DNA of 64,000 nucleotides from an uncultured Coriobacteriia bacterium (GTDB lineage Bacteria; Actinomycetota; Coriobacteriia; Coriobacteriales; QAMH01): positions 12,217-76,216 of the forward strand of contig CABRZR010000008.1 in the NCBI GenBank assembly GCA_902475535.1. The letters run 5' to 3'. The translations under genes and the position numbers were made by a program. Below are positions 12,136-58,700 of this stretch, one piece after another; the first letter of the stretch is position 1; each line of letters starts with the position of its first letter. The notes beneath the pieces are model-generated. The model saw only the letters and a program-made list of their open reading frames with translations, was not told the DNA's origin and did not search any database.

Positions 12136-12262
12136 TGTCATTTCGACCGAAGCATGGGGTACCTCCCTCGTCATTTCGAGTGGAGCGAAGCGGAGTCGAG
12201 AAATCTCCCGCATCGAGATCTCTCCATTCCGCGGCTTTGCAGCCGCTCCAGTCGAGATGACA
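12136..12262. repeat. foldback repeat, family FB (GTCATTTCGA...GAGAAATCTC units)
   Basis: It contains TGTCATTTCGACCGAAGC, GTCATTTCGAGTGGAGCGAAGCGGAGTCGAGAAATCTC and the inverted GAGATCTCTCCATTCCGCGGCTTTGCAGCCGCTCCAGTCGAGATGACA. Confidence 0.85.
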
Positions 12263-12296
12263 GGGGACACCGTGTTCCGGATACCTTGTGACGGAG

Positions 12297-15417: not shown

Positions 15418-15530
15418 TGTCATTTCGAGCGAAGCGAACGAAGTGAGCGGAGTCGAGAAATCCCGATCTTTGGCAGCGACGGGTGAGATTTCTCCACTCC
15501 GGCGCTTGCGCGCCTCCGGTCGAAATGACA
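15418..15530. repeat. foldback repeat, family FB (complete A unit + spacer + B unit)
   Basis: TGTCATTTCGAGCGAAGCGAACGAAGTGAGCGGAGTCGAGAAATC ... GAGATTTCTCCACTCCGGCGCTTGCGCGCCTCCGGTCGAAATGACA. The terminal inverted repeats are TGTCATTTCGA/TCGAAATGACA. Confidence 0.9.
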
Positions 15531-15539
15531 GGGGGCGGC

Positions 15540-23400: not shown

Positions 23401-23420
23401 CCCCGTCGTTTCGGGCGCAG

Positions 23421-23511
23421 GAGATCTCTCCATTCCGCGGCCTTGCGGCCGCTCCGGTCGAGATGACAGGCATGTCATTTCGACCGGAGCGGAGCGAAGT
23501 CGAGAAATCTC
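23421..23511. repeat. foldback repeat, family FB (B unit then A unit)
   Basis: GAGATCTCTCCATTCCGCGGCCTTGCGGCCGCTCCGGTCGAGATGACA-GGCA-TGTCATTTCGACCGGAGCGGAGCGAAGTCGAGAAATCTC. Confidence 0.9.
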
Positions 23512-23535
23512 AGTTCTTGCACGTCGACACACGAA

Positions 23536-23559: not shown

Positions 23560-23580
23560 CTTCATGCTATGTTGCCGCGC

Positions 23581-23757
23581 CTATGCGCCGATGGCGGCAA
23601 TTAGGAAGAAGCAGGCGATCACGGCGATCGAGGCGATGTAGCCAGCGGTCGTGGTGAGAATGATTTCCTTGAAGCCGCGCTTCTTGGGGGTGACGGGGGA
23701 ACCGTACTGAGCCTGCATGGCGGAGCGCTCCAGAGCCTTTTCGGGGTTGAGTATCAT
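23581..23757 (-). CDS. small tail-anchored membrane protein (58 aa)
   Basis: ATG 23757 follows GAAGGA. The product is MILNPEKALERSAMQAQYGSPVTPKKRGFKEIILTTTAGYIASIAVIACFFLIAAIGA, with one C-terminal TM helix. Confidence 0.45.
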   Translation of the reverse strand: MILNPEKALERSAMQAQYGSPVTPKKRGFKEIILTTTAGYIASIAVIACFFLIAAIGA

Positions 23758-23889: not shown

Positions 23890-26484
23890 TCATCCATCGA
23901 GGACCTGCTGGGCGATACGAACGGAGGCTGCCGCGTCATCGGCGTAATAGTCTGCGCCGATGCGTTGCGCATAGTCCTCGGTGAGCACGGCACCGCCCAC
24001 CATGATGCGGGTTTGGGGCGACTGCTCGCGCAGCAGCGCGATGGTGCGCTCCATCGCGGGCAGTGTCGTGGTCATGAGAGCCGAAAGACCCACAAGAGGG
24101 GCGTTGGCATCGAGCGTCGCATCGACGATGGCTTGCGGAGCTGCATCACGACCGAGGTCGATGACCGTGTAACCGTAGTTCTCGAGCAGCATTTTGACGA
24201 TGTTCTTGCCGATATCGTGAATATCGCCCTCGACTGTAGCGAGGATGATTGGCAATGTATTGCGTTTTGCAGCGCCAGCCGAAGCGCTTGCTTCGCTGAG
24301 CACGTCGAAGGCCGATTTGGCGGCCTCGGCTGAGGCCATGAGCTGGGGAAGAAAGTATGTGCCCTCGTCATAACGCACCCCGACCTCGTCAAGGGCGGGT
24401 GCGAGGACGTCTCCTGCGATGGAAGCGACATCGCTGGTTGCGAGCATGGTGCGTGCGGCTTCGGCGGCGGCATCACGCTGACCGGTGAGAATCGCCTCGT
24501 GAAGGGTAGTAGCGCTGTCATTTCGACTGGAGTCGCCGTTAGGCGACGCAGTGGAGAAATCTTCTCCGTCGATGTCACCGGAATGCGAAAGGCGAGATTT
24601 CTCGACTTCGCTCGTTTCACTCGCTCCGCTCGAAATGACAGGTGGGGCGCTCGCTCCGCTCGAAATGACAGGTGGGGTGCCCGCTGCGTCCGCTTTGCTC
24701 GAAATGGCATGCTGCATCGCGTGCACGTATTCCAGGCAACCGGCATCCTGGCCGTTGATGATGCGGAAGGCCGCAACGGCCTCGCGGTAGCGCGGTTCGA
24801 GCGGGTTGATGATGGGCAGATCGAGCCCGCAGGCAAGCGCAGCCGTGAGGAAACTCGCGTTGAGGACGGGACGTGCGGGCAGTCCGAAGCTCACGTTGGA
24901 GATGCCGAGCACGGTGCGCACGCCGAGGCGCTCCTTGCAGAGTCGTACGGCTTCGAGGATCTCGGGGATTTCGGGCTGGTTGGTGGCTGCGGCCATGACG
25001 AGGCAATCGATTGCGATGTCCTCGAGCTGCAGACCAGCCGAAAGAGCGGCATTGATGATGCGCTCGGCAATGGCGAGGCGCCCCTCGGCAGACGGCGGGA
25101 TGCCGTCTTCGTCGAGCGTGAGGCCAACGATGGTCGCGCCGTAGCGTGCTGCAATGGGCAACACGGCGGCGAGGCTTTCGGCCTTGCCGTTGACTGAGTT
25201 GATGAGGGGACGTCCCGCATAGCCGCGGCAGGCAGCTTCGAGTGCGTGAGGGCTGGCGGAGTCGAGTTGCAGGGGCGCTGACACGGTAGCTTGCAGGCGC
25301 TCGCTAAGCTCACGCAGTGCGCGCGGCTCGTCAATGCCCGGCACCCCGACGTTGACGTCGAGTATGTCGGCCCCGGCCTCGATCTGCGCGACGGCTTCGG
25401 AGATGGCGAGGTCATAGGAACCGCTGGCAAGCGCCTCCTTGAGGCGCGGCTTTCCCGTGGGGTTGATACGCTCGCCGATGGTCGCGACCGTGGGTGCGCC
25501 TGGCACGAGTTCGATTAGCTCCTGGGCGCTTGTCACGACAAAGGAGGGCCGATAGTCGGAAACGCTGGCGTGCAACCAGTTGCCATCATCGATGAGCTGA
25601 CGCAAAGCGGCGATGTGCGCGGGCGTTGTGCCGCAACAACCGCCGACGATGTGAGCGCCGGCTTCCAGGATGGCACCCATGGCCTGCGCGAATCTTGCGG
25701 AATCGACATCGTAGACCGTAGAACCATCTTCGGTGATGCGCGGGAGCCCCGCATTGGGCTGCACCATGAGCGGGCAGCGGGCGTGTGGGGCCATCTGCGT
25801 GACGAGAGGCGTGATCTCGCTCGGGCCGAGCGAGCAGTTGATGCCAACGGCCGAGGCACCGAGTGCGGAGAGCGTGGCGGCGGCAACGGCGGGTGTCGTG
25901 CCCATGAAGGTGCGGCCATCCTCGCCGAAGGTCATCGTCACGAAGACCGGCAACGGCGTGTTGTCGAGGCAGGCGAGCAGCGCCGCCTTGGCTTCGAGCA
26001 GGTCGGCGAAGGTTTCGAGAAAGATGAGATCGCAGCCGGCTGCGCAGGCGGCGCGGGCTTGCTCGGCGAAGATATCGTAGGCCTCCTCGAAGCCGAGCTC
26101 CCCGAGCGGGGCAAGCAGCGACCCGGTAGGACCGATGTCACCGGCAACGAGCGGTGCTCCCGCATCACGTGCGATCTGGGCTGCGGCTGCGTAGAGCTCG
26201 TCGACGCTCGCGTCATGATTCGCGAGCTTGAGGCGGTTCGAGCTGAAGGTATTGGTGGCGATGCAATCGCTGCCCGCCTCGACATACCCGCGCTGCAAGG
26301 TGCATATGTCGCTTGCGTGCGTGAGGTTGAGGAGGTCCGGCACATCGTGGATTTGCGAGAGGCCCGCCTGCTGGATGAGGCTTCCCATGCCGCCATCGGC
26401 AAGCATGATCGCCTGACCGCACATGACCTGGTTGAGAAGCTCGGATGAAATCTTGGGCGTTCGCGGGGTTGCCACGTACATCAC
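23890..26484 (-). CDS. metH: cobalamin-dependent methionine synthase core (Hcy-binding + pterin-binding + B12-binding domains; no fused activation domain)
   Basis: The product has ADGGMGSLIQ.. (S-methyltransferase), ..INSVNGK.. (pterin binding) and EGDIHDIGKNIV (DxHxxG B12 motif). A ~64-codon repeat-derived insertion lies in the linker at 24516-24709. Confidence 0.85.
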   Translation of the reverse strand: MMYVATPRTPKISSELLNQVMCGQAIMLADGGMGSLIQQAGLSQIHDVPDLLNLTHASDICTLQRGYVEAGSDCIATNTFSSNRLKLANHDASVDELYAAAAQIARDAGAPLVAGDIGPTGSLLAPLGELGFEEAYDIFAEQARAACAAGCDLIFLETFADLLEAKAALLACLDNTPLPVFVTMTFGEDGRTFMGTTPAVAAATLSALGASAVGINCSLGPSEITPLVTQMAPHARCPLMVQPNAGLPRITEDGSTVYDVDSARFAQAMGAILEAGAHIVGGCCGTTPAHIAALRQLIDDGNWLHASVSDYRPSFVVTSAQELIELVPGAPTVATIGERINPTGKPRLKEALASGSYDLAISEAVAQIEAGADILDVNVGVPGIDEPRALRELSERLQATVSAPLQLDSASPHALEAACRGYAGRPLINSVNGKAESLAAVLPIAARYGATIVGLTLDEDGIPPSAEGRLAIAERIINAALSAGLQLEDIAIDCLVMAAATNQPEIPEILEAVRLCKERLGVRTVLGISNVSFGLPARPVLNASFLTAALACGLDLPIINPLEPRYREAVAAFRIINGQDAGCLEYVHAMQHAISSKADAAGTPPVISSGASAPPVISSGASETSEVEKSRLSHSGDIDGEDFSTASPNGDSSRNDSATTLHEAILTGQRDAAAEAARTMLATSDVASIAGDVLAPALDEVGVRYDEGTYFLPQLMASAEAAKSAFDVLSEASASAGAAKRNTLPIILATVEGDIHDIGKNIVKMLLENYGYTVIDLGRDAAPQAIVDATLDANAPLVGLSALMTTTLPAMERTIALLREQSPQTRIMVGGAVLTEDYAQRIGADYYADDAAASVRIAQQVLDG
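24516..24709. repeat. family FB composite inserted in-frame in metH
   Basis: TGTCATTTCGACTGGAGTCGCCGTTAGGCGACGCAGTGGAGAAATCT, then GAGATTTCTCGACTTCGCTCGTTTCACTCGCTCCGCTCGAAATGACA, then two further ..GCTCGAAATG(A/G)CA units. Confidence 0.85.
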
Positions 26485-26528: not shown

Positions 26529-27203
26529 CTATGGCGTAGTCGTTGCGCGTGAGTGCGTGGGCTTGAGGCCGACTATCGCGGTGACGCTCTTCATCGGCGT
26601 CATGAGGTGCGAGCTTGCGGTATGGATGCCGAGTAGCTTGCCGGCATCAATCGCCTGGAGGAAAGTGTCTTGCAGCTCGAGAGGCAGGTCACCAAAGCCG
26701 GGGCTAAAGCGTTTCGTGGGTACGAGGTCGACCTTATCGGCAAGTTCAGCGATGCGCCGAGACGCGGCCTGGGCGGCCTCCTCGGCCATTGACGAGGCGC
26801 ATGCATCGAAGAGTAGCGCGTCAAGCGGGTTCGTAGCCTGCAAGCGTGCGATCGTGCGCTCGCTTTCCATGCCGAGGGTGACCGCGAGCAGGCAGGCAAG
26901 CGTGCAACCATCGAGATGGCGGGCAATGTTGTGGCCGGTCAGGACGAGGCTGCTGCCCTCGAGCACGATGCCGTCGGGGTGTTCGCGGTCAATCGTGAAG
27001 CTGCGCGCGACGCCGCGCGGCTGGGCGACGCGTTCGCAAAGGCGGATGGCGTCCTGGAAGCGAGCTGCGAGCTCGTCGGTGAGCTCGTGGCCGCGCTGCC
27101 CGAGATACTTGAGGGCGCGGAACTCGTCAACGTGGCAGGAGAGCGCTTCGGGACCGAAGCGCACGACGCGCAATCCGCCTATGTCTCCCTCATCTGTGCT
27201 CAT
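26529..27203 (-). CDS. stand-alone methionine-synthase activation (reactivation) domain protein
   Basis: The 224-aa product reads ..DEFRALKYLGQRGHELTDE..RFSPGFGDLPLELQ... This pattern matches the separate Met_synt_B12 proteins found next to short metH genes. It lies directly upstream of metH. Confidence 0.7.
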   Translation of the reverse strand: MSTDEGDIGGLRVVRFGPEALSCHVDEFRALKYLGQRGHELTDELAARFQDAIRLCERVAQPRGVARSFTIDREHPDGIVLEGSSLVLTGHNIARHLDGCTLACLLAVTLGMESERTIARLQATNPLDALLFDACASSMAEEAAQAASRRIAELADKVDLVPTKRFSPGFGDLPLELQDTFLQAIDAGKLLGIHTASSHLMTPMKSVTAIVGLKPTHSRATTTP

Positions 27204-36868: not shown

Positions 36869-36878
36869 ATGGGAGCGG

Positions 36879-36976
36879 GAGATTTCTCGACTGCGCTCAC
36901 TGCGTTCGCTCCGCTCGAAATGACAGGAGTGGGAGCGAGAGATTTCTCGACTGCGCTCGCTCCGCTCGAAATGACA
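36879..36976. repeat. family FB, two tandem units
   Basis: GAGATTTCTCGACTGCGCTCACTGCGTTCGCTCCGCTCGAAATGACA and GAGATTTCTCGACTGCGCTCGCTCCGCTCGAAATGACA, immediately after the cstA stop. Confidence 0.9.
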
Positions 36977-44613: not shown

Positions 44614-44695
44614 ATGCCTGCAAACGCTCAAGGCGGCAGGCATTTTTGCTGTCAAAATCCTGCGCTGCTCGGGTCGCCGTGGGTGCTCGGGGCAT

Positions 44696-45019
44696 GAGAT
44701 TTCTCCACTTCGGCGCTGCGCGCCTCCGGTCGAAATGACAAGGGGGCGGGCTGCGTCCCGTGCTCGAAATGACGGGGAAGCGGGTCCCGCTCGTGCTCGA
44801 AATGACAGGGGAATGGGCTGCGTCCCGTGCTCGAAATGACGGGGAAGCGGGCCCCGCCCGTGCTCGGAATGGCAGGGGAGCGAGTCCCGCCCGTGCTCGA
44901 AATGGCAGTGCGGCGGGATCATTTTGATTGCTTGCGAAACGCGGATTGATGGCGAAATGGAGGGGCGGTTTTTGTCATTTCGACCGAAGCGAGCGTAGCG
45001 AGCGGAGTGGAGAAATCTC
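44696..45019. repeat. family FB composite: B unit + five tandem 33-34-bp units + inverted A unit
   Basis: GAGATTTCTCCACTT..GGTCGAAATGACA spans 44696-44740. The tandem units span 44741-44773, 44774-44806, 44807-44840, 44841-44873 and 44874-44906, each ending GTGCTCG(A/G)AATG(A/G)C. TGTCATTTCGACCGAAGCGAGCGTAGCGAGCGGAGTGGAGAAATCTC spans 44973-45019. Confidence 0.9.
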
Positions 45020-46656
45020 TCACGCCGCGCATCCGAAAGGGTTCTCGAAGCGTTTGGGAACACCACTTTTTGGTTCGCGTCGGTGACTCGATACGATAAT
45101 TGACTGGTACCAGTGATAGCGAAACGAGACGTTCTGGGCGGAAGGAAAATGAGAGTCGAAACGGTGATAGTGATAGGTCGATTTTAGGGTTTGCGAGTGC
45201 CTGATTTTGCTACTCACGAGAGGGCTGGGAAGCTGATATTTCGATGAGAATGTCGGTCAGTTGAGGCGTGCGAATGGGGCCGTGGCTTCTGTATCGGGAG
45301 CCGATTTTGAATCTAGGATTATGATGCGACGCCGCCAAAATCAGCTCATTATTTGAGCGATTCATGATGGAGAGCTGAAGCAAAATTGGCGGCGCGGGAG
45401 AATCGTGGAAGTCTGCCGAGGCTCCCGCGATTTCGTCTCAGGTTCCGCGCCAGCAAGTTTATGAACCGATTTTATTGGAGCGGGGGTTCCGCGCCTTGGC
45501 GCGGAGATGCGCGCTAAATTGCCGCGCGATGCCGTGGTCGTTTTTTGGAGCGCGGCGAGGCATACGGAGGATGGATTAGGGCGTGTGGTTGGTTGGTGGT
45601 TTTCGGGGGTGTGTTGGTCGTTGACGCGTGGAGAATATGGCTGTTGGGCACCATTGTCTTAGGGGTGGCTGCTGAACCGAAATGACCAAGATACTTGAAG
45701 TGAATAGGGAGGGGTAACGCGAGGCGCTATCTTGGTCTGGTGATGAGGATCCAAGGGGATTGCGATAGGTCGGTTGGTGCGTCTGGAGAAGCCCGAATTG
45801 AGTTGAATCGCTATAACGAATTGCCTCAAATGAGGAGAGGGTTGGGCGATTTCAGCCGAATCGCTATATGCAGAACGCGGTTTGGGAATGCGTGATTGGA
45901 TTTTTGGGAACGTGTGGAGGGATGGATGGGTCGCGTAGGTGTCTCCTAGAGCTGTTTTTGGCTCTGCAGCGAACGGCTTGGCTTCCTTGCGCAGCGAGGA
46001 CGAAAAACGATGCGTCAGAATCGATTCTAAGGCGTTTTGCCCGTATGGCAGGTATCCGAATGTGCCAGAAGAACATAAAAGGGCTTAAAACGCCTTAAAA
46101 TGCGCCAAATGTCTCCCAGGCTTGATTTGGAAGCCTTGGATGAGAATTGAGCGGCGCGAAAGGGGTTTCGAGCCCAATCTGGACCCCGATTCTCCTTCAG
46201 GGGAATCCAAATCGGACCGAAATCACGAAAAAGGGCCTCGATGCATAGTAGCGTCAGAATTGTCAATCATTTTTTCGCAAAGAGAGACGAGCAACTCAGA
46301 GAAGATAAGAAAATCCGTGCGAATATATCTAGAAATAAGATAAAGAATTTGAATGTTTGGCTGGTGAGGGCGCGAAAAATGCGCAATTGGTTTCGTGAAG
46401 AACTTGCCAACCAAATGTGGAGGAATTGTGAAGACGAAAAATAGTTTTGAGCTTGGGTTTTGCTTGCAAATGGCTAGAAATGGCCAAAATTCAACCCTTG
46501 CTGCTACCAAAATGCCTTAGCAGTCTAATTTACGTGTTTATCCAGGAGTTCTATAGACACTCTATACAAATGTAGCGCAAAAGCTATGTAATGCTTGCAG
46601 GGTGGTAGAAGCTGCTAAACCCGCAGGTAGATGGCACAATTGCCAAAGTTTCTCGC

Positions 46657-46717: not shown

Positions 46718-49700
46718 ATGATCCAAAGCAACGAAAATATCTTTCGCGATGCACGTGCGTTACGCGCGCGTGCGCGCGTTATATATATGGTCGTTGCAGC
46801 GATCTTCCTCAGTCTCACCATTTCGGCAATTTCCGCCACGGTTTTCACCCCCGCCGCTTTTGCAGACGATACGCTCCTGGTTGCCCAAAGCGCCACGAGC
46901 GATGATGCTGTAAACGCGGGCGCGGATGATTCCGCCGGCACTCCTGTTGACCAGGCGATTCCTGGCGCGGAAGGTGGAGATTTCTCGACTCCGCTCACCG
47001 CGTTCGCTTCGCCCGAAATGGCAGGGGAGGGCGCTGTTGCCGAAAATGGCGCGGAAGACTTCTCCGAAGATGCTTCTGACCAGCAGATTTCTGGCGCGGA
47101 AGATCAGTCCGGGGAGCCGCTGAACGGCGAGGGCCAGCCTACCGAGAATTCGGCCGAGGAGACGGCCGACGAAGATCCCGCCGTCACGGAGAACGTCGAG
47201 AATCCCACCCCCGAAGAAACCACTACCGTTGAGGAGGAGACCACTCCCGACCAGGTCGACGTGCCTGGCGTCGAGGAGCCCGAGGAACCGAACGCCGGGG
47301 TCTATGGCCCGGTGCGTTATCTGGCCGCTGCATCTGCCCCGGTCATTGCGCCTGCTGCAGGCACCAATGCATTCTCGGACAACGCAAACATCACCTGGGA
47401 GTACAAGAATCATGTGCTGACGATCACCGCCGGTGGCAGTGACAAGCAGCTCACGACTTCCCTGACCGGATCGAACCTGCCCTGGCTTACCTCGACGACG
47501 AGCGCTGTCAGCCGTGCCGACATCCATAGTATTAAGTTCGTGGCCAATGGCTCGGGTGGCAAGGTCGCCCCGCTGGACCTGACGAGCTGGTTTGCTGATT
47601 ACACGGCACTCACCACCATCGACGTGACCAATCTGGACGTCTCCAAGGCCGTGAGCTTCGACAAGATGTTCCAGAACGCGAAGGTGCTCACCACCATTAC
47701 GGGTATGGAGACCTGGAAGACCGACAGCGGCATCTCGTTCCAGGACATGTTTGCCAACGTCGAGAAGCTCGAGACCCTCGACCTTTCGGGAGTCTATACT
47801 GCGACAGGTTCCGGCAGCAATGTTGCTGACGGTACCGAGAAGAATAGGCTCGACATGTTGGCCGGCATGAAGTCCTTGCGCACCATTACATTGCATCCTG
47901 ACACCGCGCTGACCGATACGGGCATCGAACGCATCTCCTCGCGCAATGACGACCTCGGTTACTGGATGGCCACGCGCGTCGTCCAGGGCGAGATCAACGT
48001 CTGGCAGGGCAAGCCCTCCGAGCTGATCCAGCGCTGGGGTACCAACGGTGCGGCGGACAACGGCCTCAAGGCGAACTTCACCCTCAACTTCTTCCCCGAG
48101 GGTTACTTCACTAGTAATAGTGCAATCAAGTGGTCCTACAACTGGAATCGCAAGACGCTCGAGATCGAGCTTGATCCGAGCATCGCTCATACGGACTTCG
48201 CCGTCACCGAGACCGCCAGCCAGCTGCCCTGGCTGCGTGCCGTTCCGAGCGACCTCATCAACATCATCACCTTCCACGAGACGATCGACGGCACTAATAC
48301 ATATAAGATGGTTGCACCCGCATCGATTGCGAACTGGTTTGCCGACTACGTCAACCTGAGCGTCTTCAGGGGTTCCGGCCTCGATGTCAGCAACGTCACG
48401 GACTTCAGCGGTCTGTTCAAGGGCTGCATCAACGCCGCGAACATCGACATGACGGGTTGGGTCATGGGCGCGTCGGCAAACATCTCCGAGATGCTCGGGG
48501 ACTGCCGCTCGCTCAAGACCATCACCGTCTCGGATACCACGCGCATTGCCGGTGCCGGCCTGCTCAACATCTCGTCGATGAACAAGGCCAACGGCGTCTG
48601 GGAGCGCTACGACGACAAGGGCAAGGTCAAGGATCCCTGGTTTGGCACGACCGACAACCTCGAGCGTCGTTACAACGGCACCATCCTGGGCGCTGCCCAC
48701 GGCGATGCCACCTATCGTTTCAACACCATCCTGCGTGGCGGTCGTTTTGACAACGACAACACCTGGTGGAAGTTCGACAACGTCAACAACATCCTTTCCA
48801 TCGGTGCCGACGATGATGAGGATGGCGAGACTCTGGGCAAGCTCATCAGCGAGACCGCCAGCGCCAACGGCACCCGTTACATGCCGTGGCTCGAGCAGGT
48901 CGATGGTCAGCCCATCGTCACGATACGCAACGTGGAGCTGATCAAGACCTATAACGGTGCCCAGCCTGCTGACATGTCCTATTGGTTCAAGGACTTCGTG
49001 AAGCTCTTCGACTTTGACGGTACCAGTCTGGACACGAGCCAGTGCGTTGGGTTCACGGGCCTGTTCATGAACGATGTCAATCTTGGTGGCATCAACAATG
49101 GCGTTCTCGACATCAGCTCCTTTGACATGAGCCACAGCATGAGCGCCAATCGCGCCGACATGTTCAAGGGTGTCAACAAGTTGCTTAATATCAAGCTGGG
49201 CCCCAAGGTGCAGCTCATCGGCTCCGGTCTGGACAAGCTCGACCTCCATGACCAGACGAGTGGTACCTGGGTGCGCAAGGGCTCCGATACCGACTACTGG
49301 ATCGGCACCTCCGCCAGCTTGCTGAATCGCTACGGCAACGCCGCTTCCGAGGGCGCCGCCCTGGGCGAGGCCGCACTCTACTTCTGGGATGTCACGTTGC
49401 TGCGCAACGTCTTCCAGTCCAATGGCAACATCTGGTGGGAGTATGACTCCGATGCCGCAATGCTGCGCATCGGTGCCACCAACCCGAGTGGCAACGTCAC
49501 CATCACCGAGCGCCCCGACCCCGTCAACGTGCAGAACGACCAGCCTTGGCTGCTCGTCATCGGCAAGGCCGCCGGTAGCGGCGAGCCCGCCCGTGCCCTG
49601 GGCCGCTCCTCGATTCGCTATATCGTCTTCGAGGACAAGCTCCACATGCTGTATCCGGCCGACTGGTTCAAGGACTACGTCAATCTCGAGAACCTGCGCT

Positions 49701-52700
49701 TTGCCAAGGGCATGGACTTCACGGGTGCCACGAGCCTCGCGAACTTCTGCGCCAATTGCACGGCAATGCACACCATCTCGGGTATGGGCAACTTCACTAA
49801 TACTACGGGGATCACCTCCGTGGCCCATATGTTCGATGGCACGAGGTTTGCCACCTTGGCCGGCGTCGATGTCTTCGACACTTCCAACGTGACGGACTTC
49901 AGCTACTTCCTCGCCAACAACACGGTACTGCGCACCTTCGACAAGGCCGCAGCCTGGAACACCTCCAAGGGCACCAACTTCAGCTACTTCTTCTACAACA
50001 ACCGCTCCCTGTCCACGCTCGACATCTCCGGTTGGGACATGAGCAAGGCGACGACCGCGAGCTCGCGCGAGAACTTCCTCGCAGGTCTCAATTCGCTCGA
50101 GATGCTGTTCCTGGGCGACAAGATCATCCTGACCAATTCTGGTCTGGGCGACGCCACGCTCGCCCCGGATCGTGCCCAGGACAAGGGCAGCTTCCAAGCC
50201 AGCACCTTCGATCCCTCGACGGCCACCAATGCCAGCGTGACCCACAAGTGGCTTGGCCCCTCGGCCGACCTCGAGCGCCGCTATCCGGTCACCAGCCGCA
50301 ACTACGGGAGCAACTTCCTCTACGAGTGGAGGGCCCGTAACTACTCCGGCCGCTTCAGCGATGCCAACGGCGGTGACATGGCCTGGTGGAAGTACGATGC
50401 CGTCACGGGCATGCTGACCGTGGGCACCGACACCACCAATCCCATCCAGCTCGCCCTTGACCCGACCGAGGCCGAGGCCGCCTGGATTCCCGTCATCGAC
50501 GCCATCTACGAGGCCGAGAACCAGTACGACGGCCTGGCCAACGTCAAGTCCTTCGTCGCCGAGGCCCTCAACGGTAACCCGACCATCCGCCTGTCGGCCT
50601 GGAGTCTCGCGAACCTCTTCGCCACCTATTACACCGGGCTCACGAGCTTCAACGGCGCGGGTCTGGCAACGGACCTCGTGATCAGCCTCGCCTCCATGTT
50701 CGAGGGCTGCGACTCGCTCGTCAGCTTCACCGGCGTGGAGAACTGGGACACGGGCAAGGTCACCACCGTAAACTCCATGTTCAAGGACACCAAGAGCGCC
50801 ATCCAGATCGAGGGCACCCAGAACTGGAACACTTCGGCGGTCACCGACTTCTCCTCGATGTTCGAGAACGCCACCGGTGTCGAGAGCATCCTCAACATCG
50901 GCACCTGGGACGTCTCGGCGGGCACGACCTTCGAGAACATGTTCAATGGTGCCACGAGCCTCAAGTACCTCAACATTGCCTTTACCCCGGCTGCCGGTGG
51001 TCACATGAACGTCGCGGCCAACCGCAACGGCATGCTCGCCAACGCACCGGCCATCCTCGAGCTCACGGTCGGCAACAACTCCTACCTGGCCGACACGGGC
51101 ATCGATGACAACCACAAGTCGTCGCGCGGCTCCTGGGAGCGTCGCGACGAGTCGTTCACCATCGTGTGGTTTGGCACGACGAAGAACCTCATGGTGCGCT
51201 ATCCGGTGTCTGACCCGGCAAGCGACCTGGGCGTCGTCAAGTACACCTGGGAAGAGGGCACGCTGCGCGGTCGCTTCACCAACGAGAACGCCTGGTGGCA
51301 GTTCACCTACACCGATGACGAGAAGACCCATGGTGACCTCATAATCGGCCTCATCGACACGAGCACCGGTGCCGACCACGTCATTACCGAGACGGCTGCC
51401 GAGCTGCCCTGGGCCGACGCCTTTGGCGACAACAGGGTTTCGGCCATCACGATGCAAAACGGCGTCACCTTCGTGGGCAACAACCTCGAGGGTTGGTTCG
51501 AGAACTACACCGCGCTCGAGCACTTCGATGGCACCAGCATGAACGTCAGCGGCGCCACGAGTCTCGCCAACCTCTTCAAGGGCGATGACAAGCTCATCGT
51601 CGTCGAGGGCCTCTCCAACTGGAGCGTCCACAACGTGCTCAGCTATGACTCGATGTTCGAGGGCTGCGCATCGGTCACCTCCATCGACGTCCACGGCTGG
51701 GAAATGAACGTCAACGCCACGCGCGTCAACATGTTCAAGGGCCTCGATTCCATCATCTCGCTGTACCTCGGCCAGTACATCAGCCTCGAGGGCACCGCGC
51801 TGTTCGATTCCGACACGCGCAACGCCACCATGGGCTCCTGGATGCGCGCCACCAAGGACGCGGACGCCGTGCTCTATGCCGATGATCCCTGGTTTGGCAG
51901 CTCCGATGACCTCGTACGCCGTTACGAGAACCCTGCCGGCAACGACCACGGCTGGAAGAACACCGACACCTATGGTGCCTACTATTACTGGCAGACCGGC
52001 GTGTTCCGCGGCCGCTTTGGCGAGAACGACAACGCCTGGTGGTCCTATGACCGCGGCACGCTGACCTTTGGCATGGACCTGCCCGAGGTGTGGTCGAGCG
52101 AGAACACCGTCGAGCCCGTCGTGACCGACCGCTCCATCTACGAGGCCGACACCATCGACCATGAGACCGGCAAGGTCGTCAAGGGCGAGCACAGCTCGCA
52201 GCTGCCTTGGGAAAAGGCCTCGAGCGTGGACGGCATGTTCAACGCCTGGACCGACGTGGTCTCCGTCACGGCGCAAACCACCGAGTACAACGGTGTCACC
52301 TACAAGATCAACCCGCGCAACCTCTCCTTCTGGTTCAAGGACTACAAGGGCCTCAAGAGCTTTGATGGCGTCAACATCAACATGAAGTCCGACGAGCAGT
52401 CCTTCGAGTCGCTGTTCGAGGGCTGCACGAGCCTCGCCGTCCTCAACTTCTCCGGTTGGGAATGGGATGGCGACATGGAGCGCACCAACATGCTCGCCAA
52501 CCTGCCGGCGCTCTCCAGCCTCACCATCAAGCGCGTCGTGCTCGAGGGCACGGGCCTGGGCCTCGATGTGAACGGCAAGGAGCTTGCCGCCCGCGCCGCC
52601 AACGTGGGCCGTTGGGTCATGGACAACAACATCGTCCATGACGTGCCGTGGTTTGGCCCCACCGCCAAGCTCGTGAGCCGCTACGACGTGATCCTGTCCG

Positions 52701-55700
52701 TCGCCATCGACGACGAGCACCTGTACACCTGGGACTCCAAGTACGCCGGTAGCCGCGTGGACAACAACCCCAATGCCTGGTGGATCTTCTCGCTGGTCGA
52801 TGACGAGGAGAACGACGTCAAGAAGGGCACGCTCATCATGGGGTCGGATGCCAGCGAGGATCGCGACATCCACAAGTCCGGTACGGCCACCTTGGTGGAC
52901 GGCAAGATGGAGTACAGCGGCTCCACCCTGCAGTGGGCGCTGTCGCCGGGCACCACGGTCGTCAAGACCGGCACCCTCGACAACATCGTCGAGATCACCG
53001 AGGACCTCATTGCCGGCATCCCCAACATTGCGGCTGTCAAGCATGTCAGCACCTTCTCGACTCTGGTTCCGCAGGACACGATGCTCGGCTGGTTTGCCAA
53101 CATGGTGAACCTCGAGAGCTTCGACGGCACCTTCCTGGACGTCTCCCATGTCACCAACTTCAACGGCCTGTTTGCCGGCTGCAAGAAGCTCGCCTACGTC
53201 AAGATCGGCAACTGGATCATGCATGATGCCGGCCGCGATGCCGACGTCACCGACATGTTCCGTGACTGCCAGTCGCTCTACAAGCTCACCGTGGGCAAGG
53301 GCGTCGTGCTCTCGCAGGCTTCCGGCCTCAGCGAGACGCTGACGAATCGCGAGCCCGACAAGGGCACCTGGATCTACAACCTGTGGTTTGGCTCCTCGAG
53401 CGACCTGGCCGACGACTACACCAACGCCGGTGTCTCGAGCGCGGCCGACGCCCTCTACACCAGCGGCTCGGTCGTCTCGACCGAGATCACCTACACCTGG
53501 GACGAGGGTAACCTGGGTGGCCGCTTCCCGAGCAACCCCAACGTCTGGTGGCGCTACACGGGCGTCGTGCGCGACGGCATGGTCGGCCTGCGCGTGGGCC
53601 TGCTGCGCATCGGCAGTGACTCCGAGGACAACAACGCCATCACCGAGACCTCCGTGCAGCTGCCCTGGCGCAAGCTGCTCAAGAACGTGAACACCATCAC
53701 CGAGGTGCGCACTGCCGCCGACGGCAGCTATCCCGTCTCGGTCAAGGACCTCTCCGGTTGGTTTGGCACCTACCTGGCCGCCGACAACTCGACCCGCGCC
53801 CATACGGGCCTGGACACCTTCAAGGGCGAGGGCTTCATCCTGGACAAGCCCGGTAACGAGTGCATCAGCCTCGAGAGCATGTTCGATGGCGCGAACAAGC
53901 TTGCCAAGGCCACGGGTATGGAGCACTGGAAGACCTCGACCGTGCGCAGCTACGTGCGCATGTTCTATGCCTGCTACGTGCTCTACGACCTGGACATCCA
54001 GGATTGGGACATGACCACGGCGCACATCCAGAACACGCCCACCACTCAGGACATGTTCCATGGCATGGGAACCTACCAGATGAAGCTCAACAGCTTGACG
54101 CTTGGTCCCAATGCCGTGCTCGAAGGCACCAACCTGTGCAAGCTCGTCGATTCCCAGCAGGGTGGTCGCACCTTCCACAACACCGGTGACGGCGTGTGGG
54201 TCATGGGCGATGCCCTCAATTCCGATGCCATCACCGGCGATACCGACACGCCGTGGTGGGACACCACCGAAGCTTTCATCGCCCGTTATGCTCTCGACAA
54301 GACCGCTCAGAGGACCGCGGCTTCTATTGCATCGCCCACCGTGGCCGCTACCGTGGCTCCGCCTGCTGATCTCATCCACAAGTACGTCTGGAATGCAGGC
54401 ATGCTTGGCGGCAATTTTGAGAGCAACGCCAACGTGTGGTGGAAGATTGACCAGGAAACGCGTGATCTCACCATTGGCGTGCACAACAAGGACCTTTGCA
54501 ACGTGGTGACTGAGTACAACCACCTCGTCGATGGCAAGGTTGTCGACGGCTATAAACAGTACATGACTCCGTGGTACAAGATCGGCGCCGCCATCTCCAG
54601 CTTCAAGGTCGATACGAAGAACGGCAAGGTCGCTCCGCTCTCGCTCGAGGGCTGGTTCGACGAGGATTGCCTCTTCCAGGAAGGTGGTCTGGGGGGCCTG
54701 CTCGGCACTCATGCCTGGAACGCCAACAACGTCATGGACGAGTGGCAGCGCTACGTAAACGAGATGTGGATTGACCTCGATTACGAGTCCACTGCTCAGG
54801 GCGTCAAGCCGTCCGATGGCTACAACATGACCGATTCCGTGCGTCCCTACTGGGAGAGCTGGAAGTGCTTCATCGCTGCCTGGGAGTATGGTGGAAATCG
54901 CTGGGAGGGCGATGCATATAACCCCTGCGTCGAGAAGATCTTCACGCCCGTGTACCTCGAGGCCGGCGAGACTTACTATCTCTCGCTCGACTACACCATG
55001 ACCTACTATTACTGGGGCGCGGGCAACTTCGGTTTCGAGATCTACGATAACGTCGTTCCGCGTACGGGCTCGAGCCGCCTTGCCGGTGTCGTGTTCCCCA
55101 ACTACGAGTACATGAACAATACCGAGCTCAGGCACGGTTACGTCACCTACACGGCTCGCAGGACCGGCATCCACTACGTGGGCTTCAACGGCCAGAACTT
55201 CCATTGCTACAATGGTGATTGGACCTTCACCTTCAAGGACCTCTCCCTGGCCAAGTACACGAAGTTCACCTATTTCGATGGCTCGGGCCTGGACACGACC
55301 AACACCACGTCCACGGAACGCATGTTCAACAACGCCGTGTTCCTGCGTGACATCATCGGCGTCGACGATTGGGACACCACGCGCGTCACCACCATGCAGT
55401 CCACCTTCCGCAACACCAAGGTGCTCACGACGCTCGACTCCATCAAGGAGTGGAATGTCTCCAACGTCGTCAACTTCAGCCGTATGTTCGAGGGCATGCA
55501 GTCCATGGACGCTACGCTCAACCTCGACTGGGTCACCACCTCGGCCGAGGACCTGAGCTACATGTTCCTTAACAACACCTTCGTCCCCAACACCAACTAC
55601 CTCAAGCTGTGGGACGTCTCCAAGGTCACCAATTACACGGGCATGTTCAAGAACGCTTCGGCGCTCGAGGACGCGGCCGCCATCTCCGACTGGCGTCTGG

Positions 55701-58700
55701 GCATCGACGTCACGAGCGACCTCACCGAGATGTTCATGAACACGCCGGCGCTCGTCGCCATCGACACACGCGGCTGGAACCTGGGCAGCCCCACCATCAT
55801 CGACCGCATGCTCTGCAACGCCACGGCCCTGCGCTCCATGGCCTTTGGCGTCACCACCTCGCTCAAGGGCGCTTACCTGGGCCTCAACGAGGAAGGCAAG
55901 CAGTTCCCCTCGCGCAATGCCCGCGCCGGTGGTTGGATACGCCTCAACGCCTCCAAGGATTGGTTCGGCTCCACGGCCGACGTCGCGGCCCTGTACCCGA
56001 CGCTCAACTGGGGCGACACGGTCGAAGGCCCCTACACCTACATCTGGACCGACGAGCAGACCGGCGGCAACTCCTTCCCCAGCAACGAGTACGCCTGGTG
56101 GAAGTACATGAAGGACTCCAAGACCCTCATCATCGGCATCGACGAGGAGAAGGCCAATAACCCCGACTTCGTCAACTACCACACCTGGGTCACCGAGACC
56201 TTCGAGGAGCTGCCCTGGTTCGTCTCCGAGGACGGCACCGAGAACCTCATCTACACCCCCGAGGAGATCGAGAACGTGCAGTTCGTCTCCAACGTGCACG
56301 TGATCAACCCCTCGCGCTGGTTTGCCGGCTACGTGAACCTGCACTCGGCCGACCTCTCCGGCATGCGCATCGACCTGGCCGGTGACATCTCCGGCCTGTT
56401 CGATGGCGACGTCAAGCTCCAGAGCGTCATCGGCTTGGACGACTGGTACAACGAGATCGGTGCTGCCACGGATGCCGCCATCGACGAGGCCAACCTCACG
56501 CTGCCCACCGACAAGCAGCTCGTGAAGGACGACACGATCATCACGTCCTTCGAGAACCTCTTCAAGGACAATACGCTGCTGCGCGAGCTCGAGACGCTCG
56601 AGAACTGGGACGTCTCCACGGTCACCAACATGGCCGGCATGTTCTGGGGTGCCGCCACGCTCAACGACATCTCGCAGCTCAACAACTGGACGACCGCGCA
56701 GGTCACGACCATGGAGAACATGTTCCGCGGCATGCTCAAGCTGCGCAAGGTCGATGCCGTCGTCAACTGGGACACCTCGTCGTGCGCCAACTTCGACGGT
56801 ATGTTCCAGGATTGCAAGACCGTCGTCTCGGTGGACCTCACGAGCCCCAACTGGAACACGGACGCGGCCATCTTCCCCAACGGCGACGGCACCAACCGCC
56901 TGCAGGCCATCAACATGCTCGCGGGCATGGATGCCCTCAAGTTCCTCTACGTGAAGCCCACGACCATCCTCACGGGCACGGGCTTGGAGAAGTCCGACAC
57001 GCATGAGGGCCGCGATGGCCGTTGGACCCTGCAGACCATCAATGGCTACGTGCCGTGGTGGGGTAGCGCCACCGACCTCGTGGAGCGCTATCCGATGGAG
57101 TACAACCCCGAGCTCGACCCGTTTGGCGGCCCCGACGGCATGAACCTCACCTACCGCTTCGAGTTTGGCAAGCCGGGCGGCCGCTTCGAGAGCAACAAGT
57201 TCGGCTGGTGGTACTTCGACAACGATCCCGAGTCCGAAACCTACAAGACGCTCGTCATCGGCGTTGACACCGAGTGGGTGCAGGTCACGGTCACCAAGGA
57301 TGGCTCCGGCAACAAGAGCTTCAGCTACACGAAGGTGCCCGTCGATAACTTCGTCGTGACCGAGACCGCCGACTATCTGCCGTGGCTCACGCCGGCATCC
57401 GGCGCCATCGAGCTCACGCCCGAGGCGGCCCGTCCGCTCATCGAGCATATCTCCTTCAACAACAACGGCATCACGCCGACGGACATCTCGCGTTGGTTCT
57501 ACGGGCTCACAAACCTCAAGGACGCCGACCTAGCCGGTGTCGAGATGAGCCAGACGCGCTCTATCGCCGGCCTCTTCGAAGGCGACGCCAAGCTCGAGAC
57601 GCTCAACACGGGCAATAAGGGCCAGCGCTGGGCCGCCATGCCCAATGTCACGACTGCCGCCTCCATGTTCAAGGGCTGCGCGATGCTCGGTGCCGTCACG
57701 GGCATGGAATACTGGGATATGGCCCAGGTGCTCAACTTCTCGTCCATGTTCCAGGGCTGCACCGTGTTGCCCAACCGCATGATCGAGCAGGCGGGCAAGT
57801 GGCAACTCAACACCGATACCGCCACCACTGTGAGCATGGCCAACATGTTCCAGAGCTGTGCCACCATCACCACCCTCGACGGCCTGCTCGACTGGAACAC
57901 GAGCCGCGTCAACACCTTTGCCTACATGTTCGAGAACTGCGCCTCGCTGCTCTATGCCAACGGCGTGCGCAATTGGACCACCGACATCTGCATGGACTAC
58001 ACGGCCATGTTCCAGGGCGACCGCGCCCTCAAGGAGTTCAACGCCAAGAACTGGGTCGTGGACCGTGGCTGCGCCTACGAGAACACCTTCTACCTGTGTA
58101 TGGATCTCAACCGCTGCGTGCTGGGTGAGGGGTGGTCCACCATCAAGGAACCGACCCGCGTCGATCCGTTCCAGAACATCGTCAATGTCACGCTCGATCC
58201 CGGTCAGTCCTACAGCTGGAAGTTCACCGCCCCGCAGTGGGCCGACGGCTTCTACGTCGAGATCTTCAACTACATCTTCGACAGCCACTATCCGAGCTGC
58301 CCGGCTACTCACGGCTACATCTACGGTGCCGAGAAAGAGGGCATGCCCCTGACGATGTTCTGGACCGACTACAGGCATGGTTCCACGAGCGCTCTTATCG
58401 ATGGCCGCTTCTGCCAGATCGATATCGTCGTGCCCGGTGGCTGCGCTGCTAAGTCCTACATCAACTTCCAGGTGCACTACGTCTATCCCGAGAAGATGAT
58501 CTGGGAGTGCGAGGAGGACCATTGGACCGGCACCTGGGATAACATCAACGAGGGCTTTGACAAGTACCAGGCAACCATGGCCGGCACCTACGTGTGGGGC
58601 GACTTCAAGGCCGGCGCGCGCTTTGACTCCAACGACCGTGCCTGGTGGACCCTCGAGATTCGCGACGACAGCTACGAGCTTGTCATCAGCCTCGACGAGG

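Follow-up and report, generated by a model that had tools for sequence, protein, structure and literature searches.

Short palindromic repeats that are read in frame within bacterial genes have been described as Rickettsia palindromic elements (RPE; covered in the review PMC10969869 after Ogata et al. 2000, Science 290:347). In the account given there, RPE are dispersed, measure ~100-150 bp, lie in frame in unrelated housekeeping genes, are retained across species and add peptide segments that are compatible with the fold of the host protein. Here we describe a similar situation in a 64,000-nt stretch from an uncultured Coriobacteriia bacterium (hereafter, the window), in which a dispersed palindromic repeat has very probably inserted in frame into the hinge of the methionine synthase gene metH and been tolerated there. 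Like RPE, the element is short, palindromic and dispersed, and its translated segment is predicted to be compatible with the host fold. RPE hosts are Alphaproteobacteria, whereas the present host belongs to the Actinomycetota, Coriobacteriia; the likeness is one of analogy, a relationship in sequence is not expected, and we do not claim family membership. Furthermore, RPE are frequently genic according to the same source, whereas the window holds two in-frame cases in 64 kb and most copies are intergenic, and the metH copy, unlike RPE, carries tandem expansions of its end units.

The review also lists in-frame fusions of intragenic ERIC/IRU (Delihas 2007), BOX and Anabaena MITEs (miniature transposable elements with inverted repeats). 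ERIC/IRU are, as summarized there, also imperfect palindromes (~127 nt) with open frames that occasionally lie in coding sequence and make new peptide segments, but they represent other families in other hosts, and the metH insertion has become fixed in several species, within a hinge of known mechanism in a well-studied enzyme. In its architecture, two inverted palindromic units around a spacer that form a long hairpin, the present family is the same as the REPINs built from REP sequences (Bertels & Rainey 2011, PMC3116915; PMC3337134), and both occur as solo units and clusters with long vertical persistence. However, the REP super-families carry a GTAG/CGTC tag in the description of PMC3733652, in contrast to the end motif TGTCAT... 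found here, and REPs are defined as extragenic while the metH copy is genic. No RAYT was seen in the loci covered, and among the open reading frames (ORFs) within 2.5 kb of the repeat at 80 metagenome loci the only recurrent neighbour was a GIY-YIG gene. Judged by its sequence, the element resembles a REPIN or a MITE. The phenomenon is already known from Rickettsia RPE and intragenic ERIC, and what is new is this instance outside Rickettsia: selfish palindromic DNA absorbed into an essential enzyme, in a case that is replicated in nature.

The gene, its Pfam domains and the parts of the insert are as follows, in the order of translation.

23890..26484, minus strand: metH-type gene, a single uninterrupted ORF of 864 aa
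aa 28-297: S-methyl_trans (PF02574, Pfam), the homocysteine S-methyltransferase module (Hcy)
aa 337-559 = 24808..25476, minus strand: Pterin_bind (Fol; PF00809), Pfam E 7.5e-25
24709->24671, minus strand: degenerate first left-end unit GCCATTTCGAGCAAAGCGGACGCAGCGGGCACCCCACCT, 39 nt, right after the native ..AMQH codons
24670->24641, minus strand: additional left-end unit in tandem, 30 nt and 10 codons, source of the second PPVISSGAS
24640->24515, minus strand: complete palindromic element, 126 nt, 42 codons
aa 660-729 = 24298..24507, minus strand: B12-binding_2 cap (Cap; PF02607), Pfam E 7.6e-17
aa 746-853 = 23926..24249, minus strand: B12-binding Rossmann domain, cobalamin-binding (Cob; PF02310), Pfam E 4.2e-27

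The composite insert (24515-24709) thus comprises 195 nt, or 65 stop-free codons, corresponding to aa 593-657. It falls between Pterin_bind, which ends at aa 559, and the cap, which starts at aa 660, three codons past the complete element, and is therefore interdomain. A preliminary description of the window had proposed exactly this, a dispersed repeat translated without a stop in the stretch that separates the pterin-binding domain from the B12 cap; the peptide it quoted is residues 593-657. Its coordinates and length were right within 1 nt, but the lengthening of about 64 residues that it assumed has to be reduced: between the same anchors, the shortest linkers of close relatives measure 28-29 aa against 74 aa here, a net gain of ~45 residues. 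It had also taken the duplicated PPVISSGAS for a translated repeat unit, and this duplication indeed stems from the tandem 30-nt end unit, as an exact 26-nt repeat is present at 24620-24645 and 24650-24675 with a spacing of 30 nt. This extra unit is missing in the closest relatives (P0001/L001; P numbers denote orthologue clusters and L numbers loci), and a similar one is present in P0010/L082. The degenerate 39-nt unit, in turn, is common to all carrier orthologues and defines the left junction. The complete element consists of a left arm TGTCATTTCGAGCG..GTCGAGAAATCTC, a loop, and a right arm GAAGATTTCTCCAC-mini-hairpin TCGCCTAACGGCGA-CTCCAGTCGAAATGACAG, and it folds as a long hairpin both as DNA (-30.8 kcal/mol, z -3.6) and as RNA (-53.4 kcal/mol, z -4.1). 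One predicted tryptic peptide from this region is SRLSHSGDIDGEDFSTASPNGDSSR, variants of which occur in orthologues. A consensus scan of the insert found no promoter-like or terminator-like site. An intein, an intron or a programmed excision was rejected, since the insert measures 65 aa, lacks any Hint-like or intron signature and is unmatched in Rfam.

The gene itself is intact. All four Pfam domains are full-length and above cut-off, in the order Hcy, Fol, Cap, Cob, and no frameshift was found that would make metH a pseudogene. The S-adenosylmethionine (AdoMet) activation module is absent from the 864-aa ORF, and the TIGR02082 metH model matches the ORF only partially, in line with a short form; the closest PDB matches are the T. 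maritima and Thermus MetH. Residues C217, C283, C284, D754, H756, G759, S801, L803, G830 and G831 are invariant among 14 relatives, and we take them, after E. coli MetH, to be the Zn-ligand cysteines and the D-x-H-x-x-G / S-x-L / G-G cobalamin motif.

That the insert is a copy of a dispersed repeat is carried by profile matches. A 26-nt unit, CCACCTGTCATTTCGAGCGGAGCGAG, occurs 4 times in the window (<=3 mismatches) versus 0.00 expected from shuffles, and a 10-nt end motif, GTCATTTCGA, occurs 26 times (<=1 mismatch) versus 4.9 expected. When an nhmmer profile was made solely from the intergenic copies at 15418-15531 and 12170-12263, all of its positions (1-116) were matched by 24640->24515 at an E value of 1.2e-22, and the match is orientation specific (80 bits forward versus 39 bits reverse). 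A wider profile matches the metH element with E 5e-38, and a columnwise alignment of the insert with intergenic copies gives 75-84% identity. The other copies in the window are listed below.

12137..12263, plus strand: intergenic; a left-end unit on its own, then a full copy (12170-12263)
15418..15531, plus strand: canonical full-length intergenic copy of 114 nt, filling the spacer between two convergently listed genes
23410..23521, plus strand: right and left arms arranged tail to head, downstream of both metH and the small gene behind it
36873..36976, minus strand: two left-arm copies, intergenic
44694..45026, plus strand: cluster of a right arm, an array of ~6 right-end units and a left arm, intergenic
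46970..47022, minus strand: left-arm fragment ..GGDFSTPLTAFASPEMAGEG.. (nhmmer E 1e-10), read in frame in a giant plus-strand gene

A canonical copy is an imperfect palindrome of 94-126 nt with the layout TGTCATTTCGAGCG..GTCGAGAAATCTC, loop, GAGATTTCTCCAC-mini-hairpin-CTCCGGTCGAAATGACA (hairpin z -3.6 to -4.5). Copies end in TGTCATTTCGA..../....TCGAAATGACA, the arms are complementary across 18-20 nt, each arm has its own hairpin while the two arms also pair together, and there is no coding capacity. Copies often have a C-rich left flank and a G-rich right flank, and this lengthens the palindrome. The spacer orthologous to that of the 15418 copy lacks the element in L085/L086, although the filled and empty sites (15418 versus L085) are too diverged to set the element ends; the 23410 copies are present in relatives of the window clade and absent at that site in L085. 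On average ~3 of the 6 frames of an intergenic copy are stop-free, and a stop-free insertion that preserves the gene is therefore not improbable. The converse origin, in which the dispersed repeats would derive from the metH linker, was rejected, as the same architecture is intergenic in Gordonibacter, in another Eggerthellaceae metagenome-assembled genome (MAG) and in many unrelated metagenomes. Rfam 15 gave nothing at gathering threshold in the window and nothing at E<=1 around metH or the canonical copy, the canonical copy was unmatched in plasmid and phage collections, and literature searches by sequence strings returned only unrelated primers, with no description of the superfamily found in the searchable literature.

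Two of these copies deserve a separate description. At 44694-44910, ~6 right-end units (CTCGAAATGAC + ~23 nt) lie head to tail with periods of 33-34 nt and without matching left arms; this shows that, in intergenic DNA, end units can multiply by themselves, just as inside metH they do so in multiples of three. The GGDFSTPLTAFASPEMAGEG fragment lies at about aa 85-104 of a giant protein, in a disordered, low-complexity region near the N terminus. Its plus-strand gene starts with an ATG at 46718, encodes a signal-peptide-like N terminus and has no stop before the window ends (at least 5761 codons), and the listed minus-strand ORF of 3562 aa (46760..57448) is its antisense shadow. No orthologue of this protein's N terminus was close enough for comparison.

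The insertion is not confined to the window. The nearest named relatives of the window MetH are those of Parvibacter and Adlercreutzia (58-67% identity), and the nearest genome representatives are human-gut Coriobacteriia MAGs (HGM04055, 95%; MGYG-HGUT-02714, 88%; MGYG-HGUT-04247, 85%). Orthologues were clustered at 90% identity, some clusters holding 50-324 member sequences, and loci were recovered from ENA and Logan assemblies; all sequences compared come from metagenome assemblies. The full element was found in at least 24 orthologue clusters from independent assemblies of uncultured gut Eggerthellaceae, in the same frame and with the same junctions, and two more (P0018/19) harbor a truncated form. 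On DNA, it was seen in the same orientation and frame in L001, L002, L082, L083, L087, L088, L085, L086 and L009. Carriers fall into two clades that are ~78% identical and share the junctions (ATG CAG + 1-2 codons on the left; GGT CCY GCY TCC on the right), and in both clades the first unit has the variant GCG GAC GYA GCG. Since gene order around metH is also the same in both, the loci are orthologous. The orthologue alignment and the search for empty sites, both suggested by the preliminary description, identified relatives without a detectable element (L003, L004, L007 and more distant Eggerthellaceae), and in the linker alignment the element was undetected in the clade P0020-P0030 (75-78% identity) and in all more distant relatives. 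No repeat-free genome with the same linker sequence emerged outright: L085/L086 have no further family copy in the 22 kb covered, which is not a genome, and their linker can still be recognised as a full palindromic element and is not a native one.

Among close relatives, the insert ranges from 39 to 82 residues, with 1-3 left-end units and 1-3 right-end units per gene. Tandem units inside metH are spaced by 30, 36 or 39 nt in 10 of 10 cases, all multiples of three, versus 33-34 nt in intergenic arrays. In addition, the left arm is shortened in L002/L087, leaving a 108-nt core, the right arm has been lost in L005/P0018, and L085/P0031 lacks 15 nt at the right end. In L005 and L085 the hairpin z is only -0.9 to +0.6, and the gene is still intact. 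The metH contigs of L001, L002, L003, L082 and L088 (3.3-4.7 kb) end within 1-2 kb of the gene beside repeat copies, so the family probably fragments short-read assemblies of these genomes. For annotation, such inserts account for low-complexity stretches (VISSGAS..EVEKS..DFST..GRND) in conserved proteins and for contig breaks near such genes.

The landing site is a hinge. In Thermus MetH, Linker II (~17 residues) is a helix-loop hinge whose transition accompanies movements of 30-45 Å (bioRxiv 10.1101/2024.08.29.610163), and in the Thermus thermophilus structures (PDB 8SSC, 9CBO-9CBR) it occupies the same position, between the folate domain and the B12 cap. In contrast to this short linker with its defined transition, the linker here has 74 residues, ~57 of which are predicted to be disordered and are repeat-derived. 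Indeed, AlphaFold2 run with a 44-sequence alignment (mean predicted local distance difference test [pLDDT] score, 79.5) modeled the domains confidently and placed helices at 564-576, 581-600 and 652-667, while residues 598-654 had a pLDDT of 25-33 and no secondary structure; the insert is thus predicted to be disordered. Across 84 Eggerthellaceae loci with the same anchors, the Fol:Cap linker varies from 28 to 99 aa (84-297 nt), and its length is evidently unconstrained in this family. This natural series (28-99 residues in one family) can be used to probe what length and degree of disorder in the tether are compatible with the catalytic cycle.

We compared codon changes in the insert with those in its flanks. 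The ratio of nonsynonymous to synonymous differences (N:S) was 1.9-15 in the insert versus 0.26-0.71 in the flanks in 15 of 15 pairs (Fisher p 0.012 to 3e-8), and second codon positions were the least conserved in the insert. As the differences are mostly nonsynonymous, the peptide is not under purifying selection, and exaptation at the protein level is unsupported. The preliminary description had left the choice between repeat exaptation and tolerated insertion. The first does not hold up against these ratios, and L005 and L085 have deleted parts of the element yet keep the gene; the second agrees with an intact gene, conserved motifs, an insert predicted to be disordered and codons without peptide-level constraint. 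Within the window clade, identity of the insert (0.92, 0.91 and 0.83) follows that of flank third positions (0.95, 0.87 and 0.79), i.e., approximately the synonymous rate.

We thus propose that a non-coding MITE/REPIN-like palindrome of ~115-126 nt entered the Fol:Cap linker in an ancestor of this group of human-gut Eggerthellaceae. The inserted copy would have happened to be a multiple of three and stop-free in the frame used, and the gene could have stayed functional because the landing segment presumably needs only to be a flexible tether between rigid domains. The element would now be translated as an unstructured extension of the linker in a protein that we infer to be made and active. 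Later drift would have let the terminal units grow and shrink by slippage-like events, filtered only for frame, with codons changing regardless of their amino-acid meaning, and some lineages would have deleted part of the element, possibly all of it.

The same linker has received pieces of sister elements in three other lineages. That of L081/P0040 (2862-3056) contains GGGATTCCTCGAC..CTCGGAATGAC followed by GTTACCCCGAGCG..GAGTCGAGGGATCC (nhmmer E 2.9e-5). The linker of Gordonibacter sp. Marseille-P2775 (L034, 9714-9971) harbors a right arm plus an extra end unit, with 93% identity across 45-48 nt to copies that are intergenic in the flank of the same locus, and that of G. faecis (L046, 9714-9902) harbors a left-arm piece identical in 31/31 nt to an intergenic copy of L034. 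In L081, L034 and L046 these pieces are read in frame as ..IPRLRAFGSSLGMT..VTPSERSESRDP.., ..DPSTPALRACAQDDKGAALRAYAQDDS.. and ..PSERSAESKDPVRC.., respectively, and intergenic copies matching them are present in Gordonibacter and in another MAG. They lie at other linker positions and, where compared, in other frames, and therefore represent separate events. The MetH linker thus takes in such repeats repeatedly, and the simplest reading is a survivorship filter, in which coding insertions persist only in disordered, length-tolerant segments.

Other linkers of the family have expanded in different ways. The 99-aa linker of Adlercreutzia rubneri (L010, 9816-10112) contains two copies of CCCGTWGGGGGCGACCTTGGTCGCCCCTC, a perfect 9-bp hairpin that encodes the peptide PVGGDLGRPS, and its GISTAG and GARNND motifs faintly resemble element ends. 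A dispersed origin of this hairpin duplication is unsupported, as blastn against the flanks found no copies. In L039, L043, L067, L035 and L060, the linker shows a non-repeat expansion with a conserved helical-looking motif, ..DVDQEKLAQGLALIAQATGG.., which suggests a structured insertion in the same hinge.

Several observations weigh against the account proposed above. No consistent direct repeat, as expected of a target-site duplication, was seen flanking the copies at 12170, 15418, 23410 and 24515, no partner transposase was found in the window, and neither the window nor the Eggerthellaceae loci yielded a parent autonomous element. When the linker was left out of the MetH tree, the carriers formed a clade in 0 of 200 bootstraps, while the element-less P0022/P0029 lineage was sister to the window clade in 200 of 200; because carriers are non-monophyletic, a single gain needs at least two losses. 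The sole trace of a lost copy comes from L003, where 16/17 nt agree with the first unit (uncorrected p of 0.002-0.004 for each comparison; nhmmer, E 9, not significant), a likeness that is no more than suggestive, and a remnant search in the element-less L004 and L007 was negative. Finally, when the window clade is compared with L085/86 over the deep split, third positions of the insert are 0.77-0.87 identical versus 0.57 gene-wide (p 3e-5 to 0.01 in 8 of 10 pairs, adjacent flanks not elevated), a comparison that covers only 33-44 codons and excludes indel-rich parts, which inflates identity. Pure neutral drift from a single old insertion does not predict such an excess, which could reflect nucleotide-level constraint, correction of the palindrome on its own template, homogenisation through other copies or an insert of younger age. 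One old gain followed by later losses is nevertheless favoured, because the junctions are identical.

A younger insert would mean that the two carrier clades gained the element independently through a target preference, or that the segment moved between them, the insert being younger than the species split. The non-monophyly of the carriers and the low divergence of the insert relative to synonymous sites fit such a history, as do the separate insertions into this linker in other lineages and the fact that the L086 insert is no closer to the window metH copy (identity 0.78) than to intergenic copies of the window clade (0.71-0.81). However, both junctions, the frame, the orientation and the GCG GAC GYA GCG variant coincide between the clades, whereas the other independent insertions lie at different linker positions; moreover, no donor copy was seen in 22 kb of L085/L086 and the flanking codons show no recombination tract. 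We regard independent gain or movement between the clades as rather doubtful. Alternatively, the insert could be kept for a nucleic-acid function (e.g., an mRNA hairpin between the Hcy-Fol half, at the N terminus, and the Cap-Cob half, at the C terminus, that pauses ribosomes or affects mRNA stability), or its palindrome could be corrected against itself or other copies. The elevated third positions next to unelevated flanks point in this direction, and so do the stability of the mRNA segment in the window clade (-53 to -71 kcal/mol, z -4 to -7.8) and one mini-hairpin pair that shows T-A, C-G and C-A states among genic copies; the metH copy of L085/L086 has been kept although 22 kb of sequence hold no second one, and this speaks against gene conversion in these loci. 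Yet L085 and L005 have lost the outer stem by deletion with the gene intact, the insert of the window clade diverges at about the synonymous rate, as neutrality expects, the third-position excess rests on those few codons with inflated identity, and no promoter-like or terminator-like site is present. A retained nucleic-acid role thus seems distinctly unlikely to us, and tolerated insertion remains the preferred account.

It is very unlikely that the insert peptide was exapted as a longer tether or as a docking segment, e.g., for a separate activation protein. While the insert lies in Linker II, the driver of MetH domain movements, persists in several species and accompanies an activation domain that is apparently encoded separately, its N:S of 2-15 is at or above the unconstrained expectation and the segment is predicted to be fully disordered. 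Furthermore, the insert may be as short as 39 or as long as 82 residues in close relatives, P0018/19 have deleted half of the element, and close relatives with linkers of 28-40 aa keep the same gene set and synteny. We give hardly any credence to the idea that metH is a pseudogene or that the insert is a misassembly caused by the repeat. The data do come wholly from metagenome assemblies, the short contigs (3.3-4.7 kb) of several relatives suggest repeat-induced breaks nearby, and the exact two-left-unit allele of the window is missing from the protein database, where the best match is 97%. However, the ORF is uninterrupted with all domains complete, the flanking codons are under strong purifying selection (N:S 0.26-0.7), and the insertion was recovered by different assemblers and projects, including on contigs of 47-150 kb.

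To judge from exact matches, the repeat family is far wider than the Eggerthellaceae. A left-arm signature, GTCATTTCGAGCG-N(8-38)-GTCGAGAAATC, is present exactly in at least 120 metagenome stretches on contigs with a G+C content (GC) of 0.38-0.71. Among the matches listed, about half show the full double-hairpin architecture, in which the mini-hairpins vary in sequence and stay self-complementary. At three of 80 metagenome loci, the arms lie on either side of a reverse-oriented GIY-YIG ORF of ~100 aa (PF01541, E 1e-14 to 1e-15): L096 (~1546-1990 of the reverse complement), L101 (473-900) and L125 (~592-1010 of the reverse complement). These loci combine a left arm with a sister-type right arm, ..CTCGACATGACA or ..CTCGGAATGACA, and the GIY-YIG ORF may be the autonomous partner of the small elements. 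This recurrence of one architecture across metagenomes that differ widely in GC, in some cases around a GIY-YIG gene, is perhaps the more interesting lead. One might go further and see in the hinge a recurrent landing or retention site for a cross-phylum double-hairpin superfamily, possibly mobilised by small GIY-YIG nucleases, with the metH copy conserved in its nucleotides for the sake of its very stable mRNA or DNA hairpin and co-opted as an intragenic nucleic-acid signal (e.g., one pacing translation from one half of the enzyme to the other) and not as a peptide; we consider this combination improbable.

At the protein level, a 45-aa consensus insert peptide searched against an index of 5.8 billion proteins returned no candidate sharing enough words. 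When the 65-aa insert was run through HMMER over 1.84 billion cluster representatives, three matches came back, namely two unrelated repetitive proteins and one spurious repeat-array ORF, in a database whose clustering at 50% identity hides carriers whose representative is insert-free.

The neighbours of metH are conserved as well. Immediately upstream lies a second gene that is syntenic with it in all relatives.

26529..27203, minus strand: upstream 224-aa ORF

Its product matches Met_synt_B12 below threshold (E 1.6e-3, 18.4 bits with a cut-off of 25, aa 104-215) and has no NCBIfam match. From this similarity, it is probably the separately encoded MetH activation domain, as in a split system. 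On the other side, between metH and an M24 peptidase gene, a 58-codon gene (23575-23751, minus strand) encodes MILNPEKALERSAMQAQYGSPVTPKKRGFKEIILTTTAGYIASIAVIACFFLIAAIGA, with a C-terminal hydrophobic helix. It is followed by a GC-rich terminator-like hairpin, and the gene is kept at the same place in L083, L085, L087 and L088.

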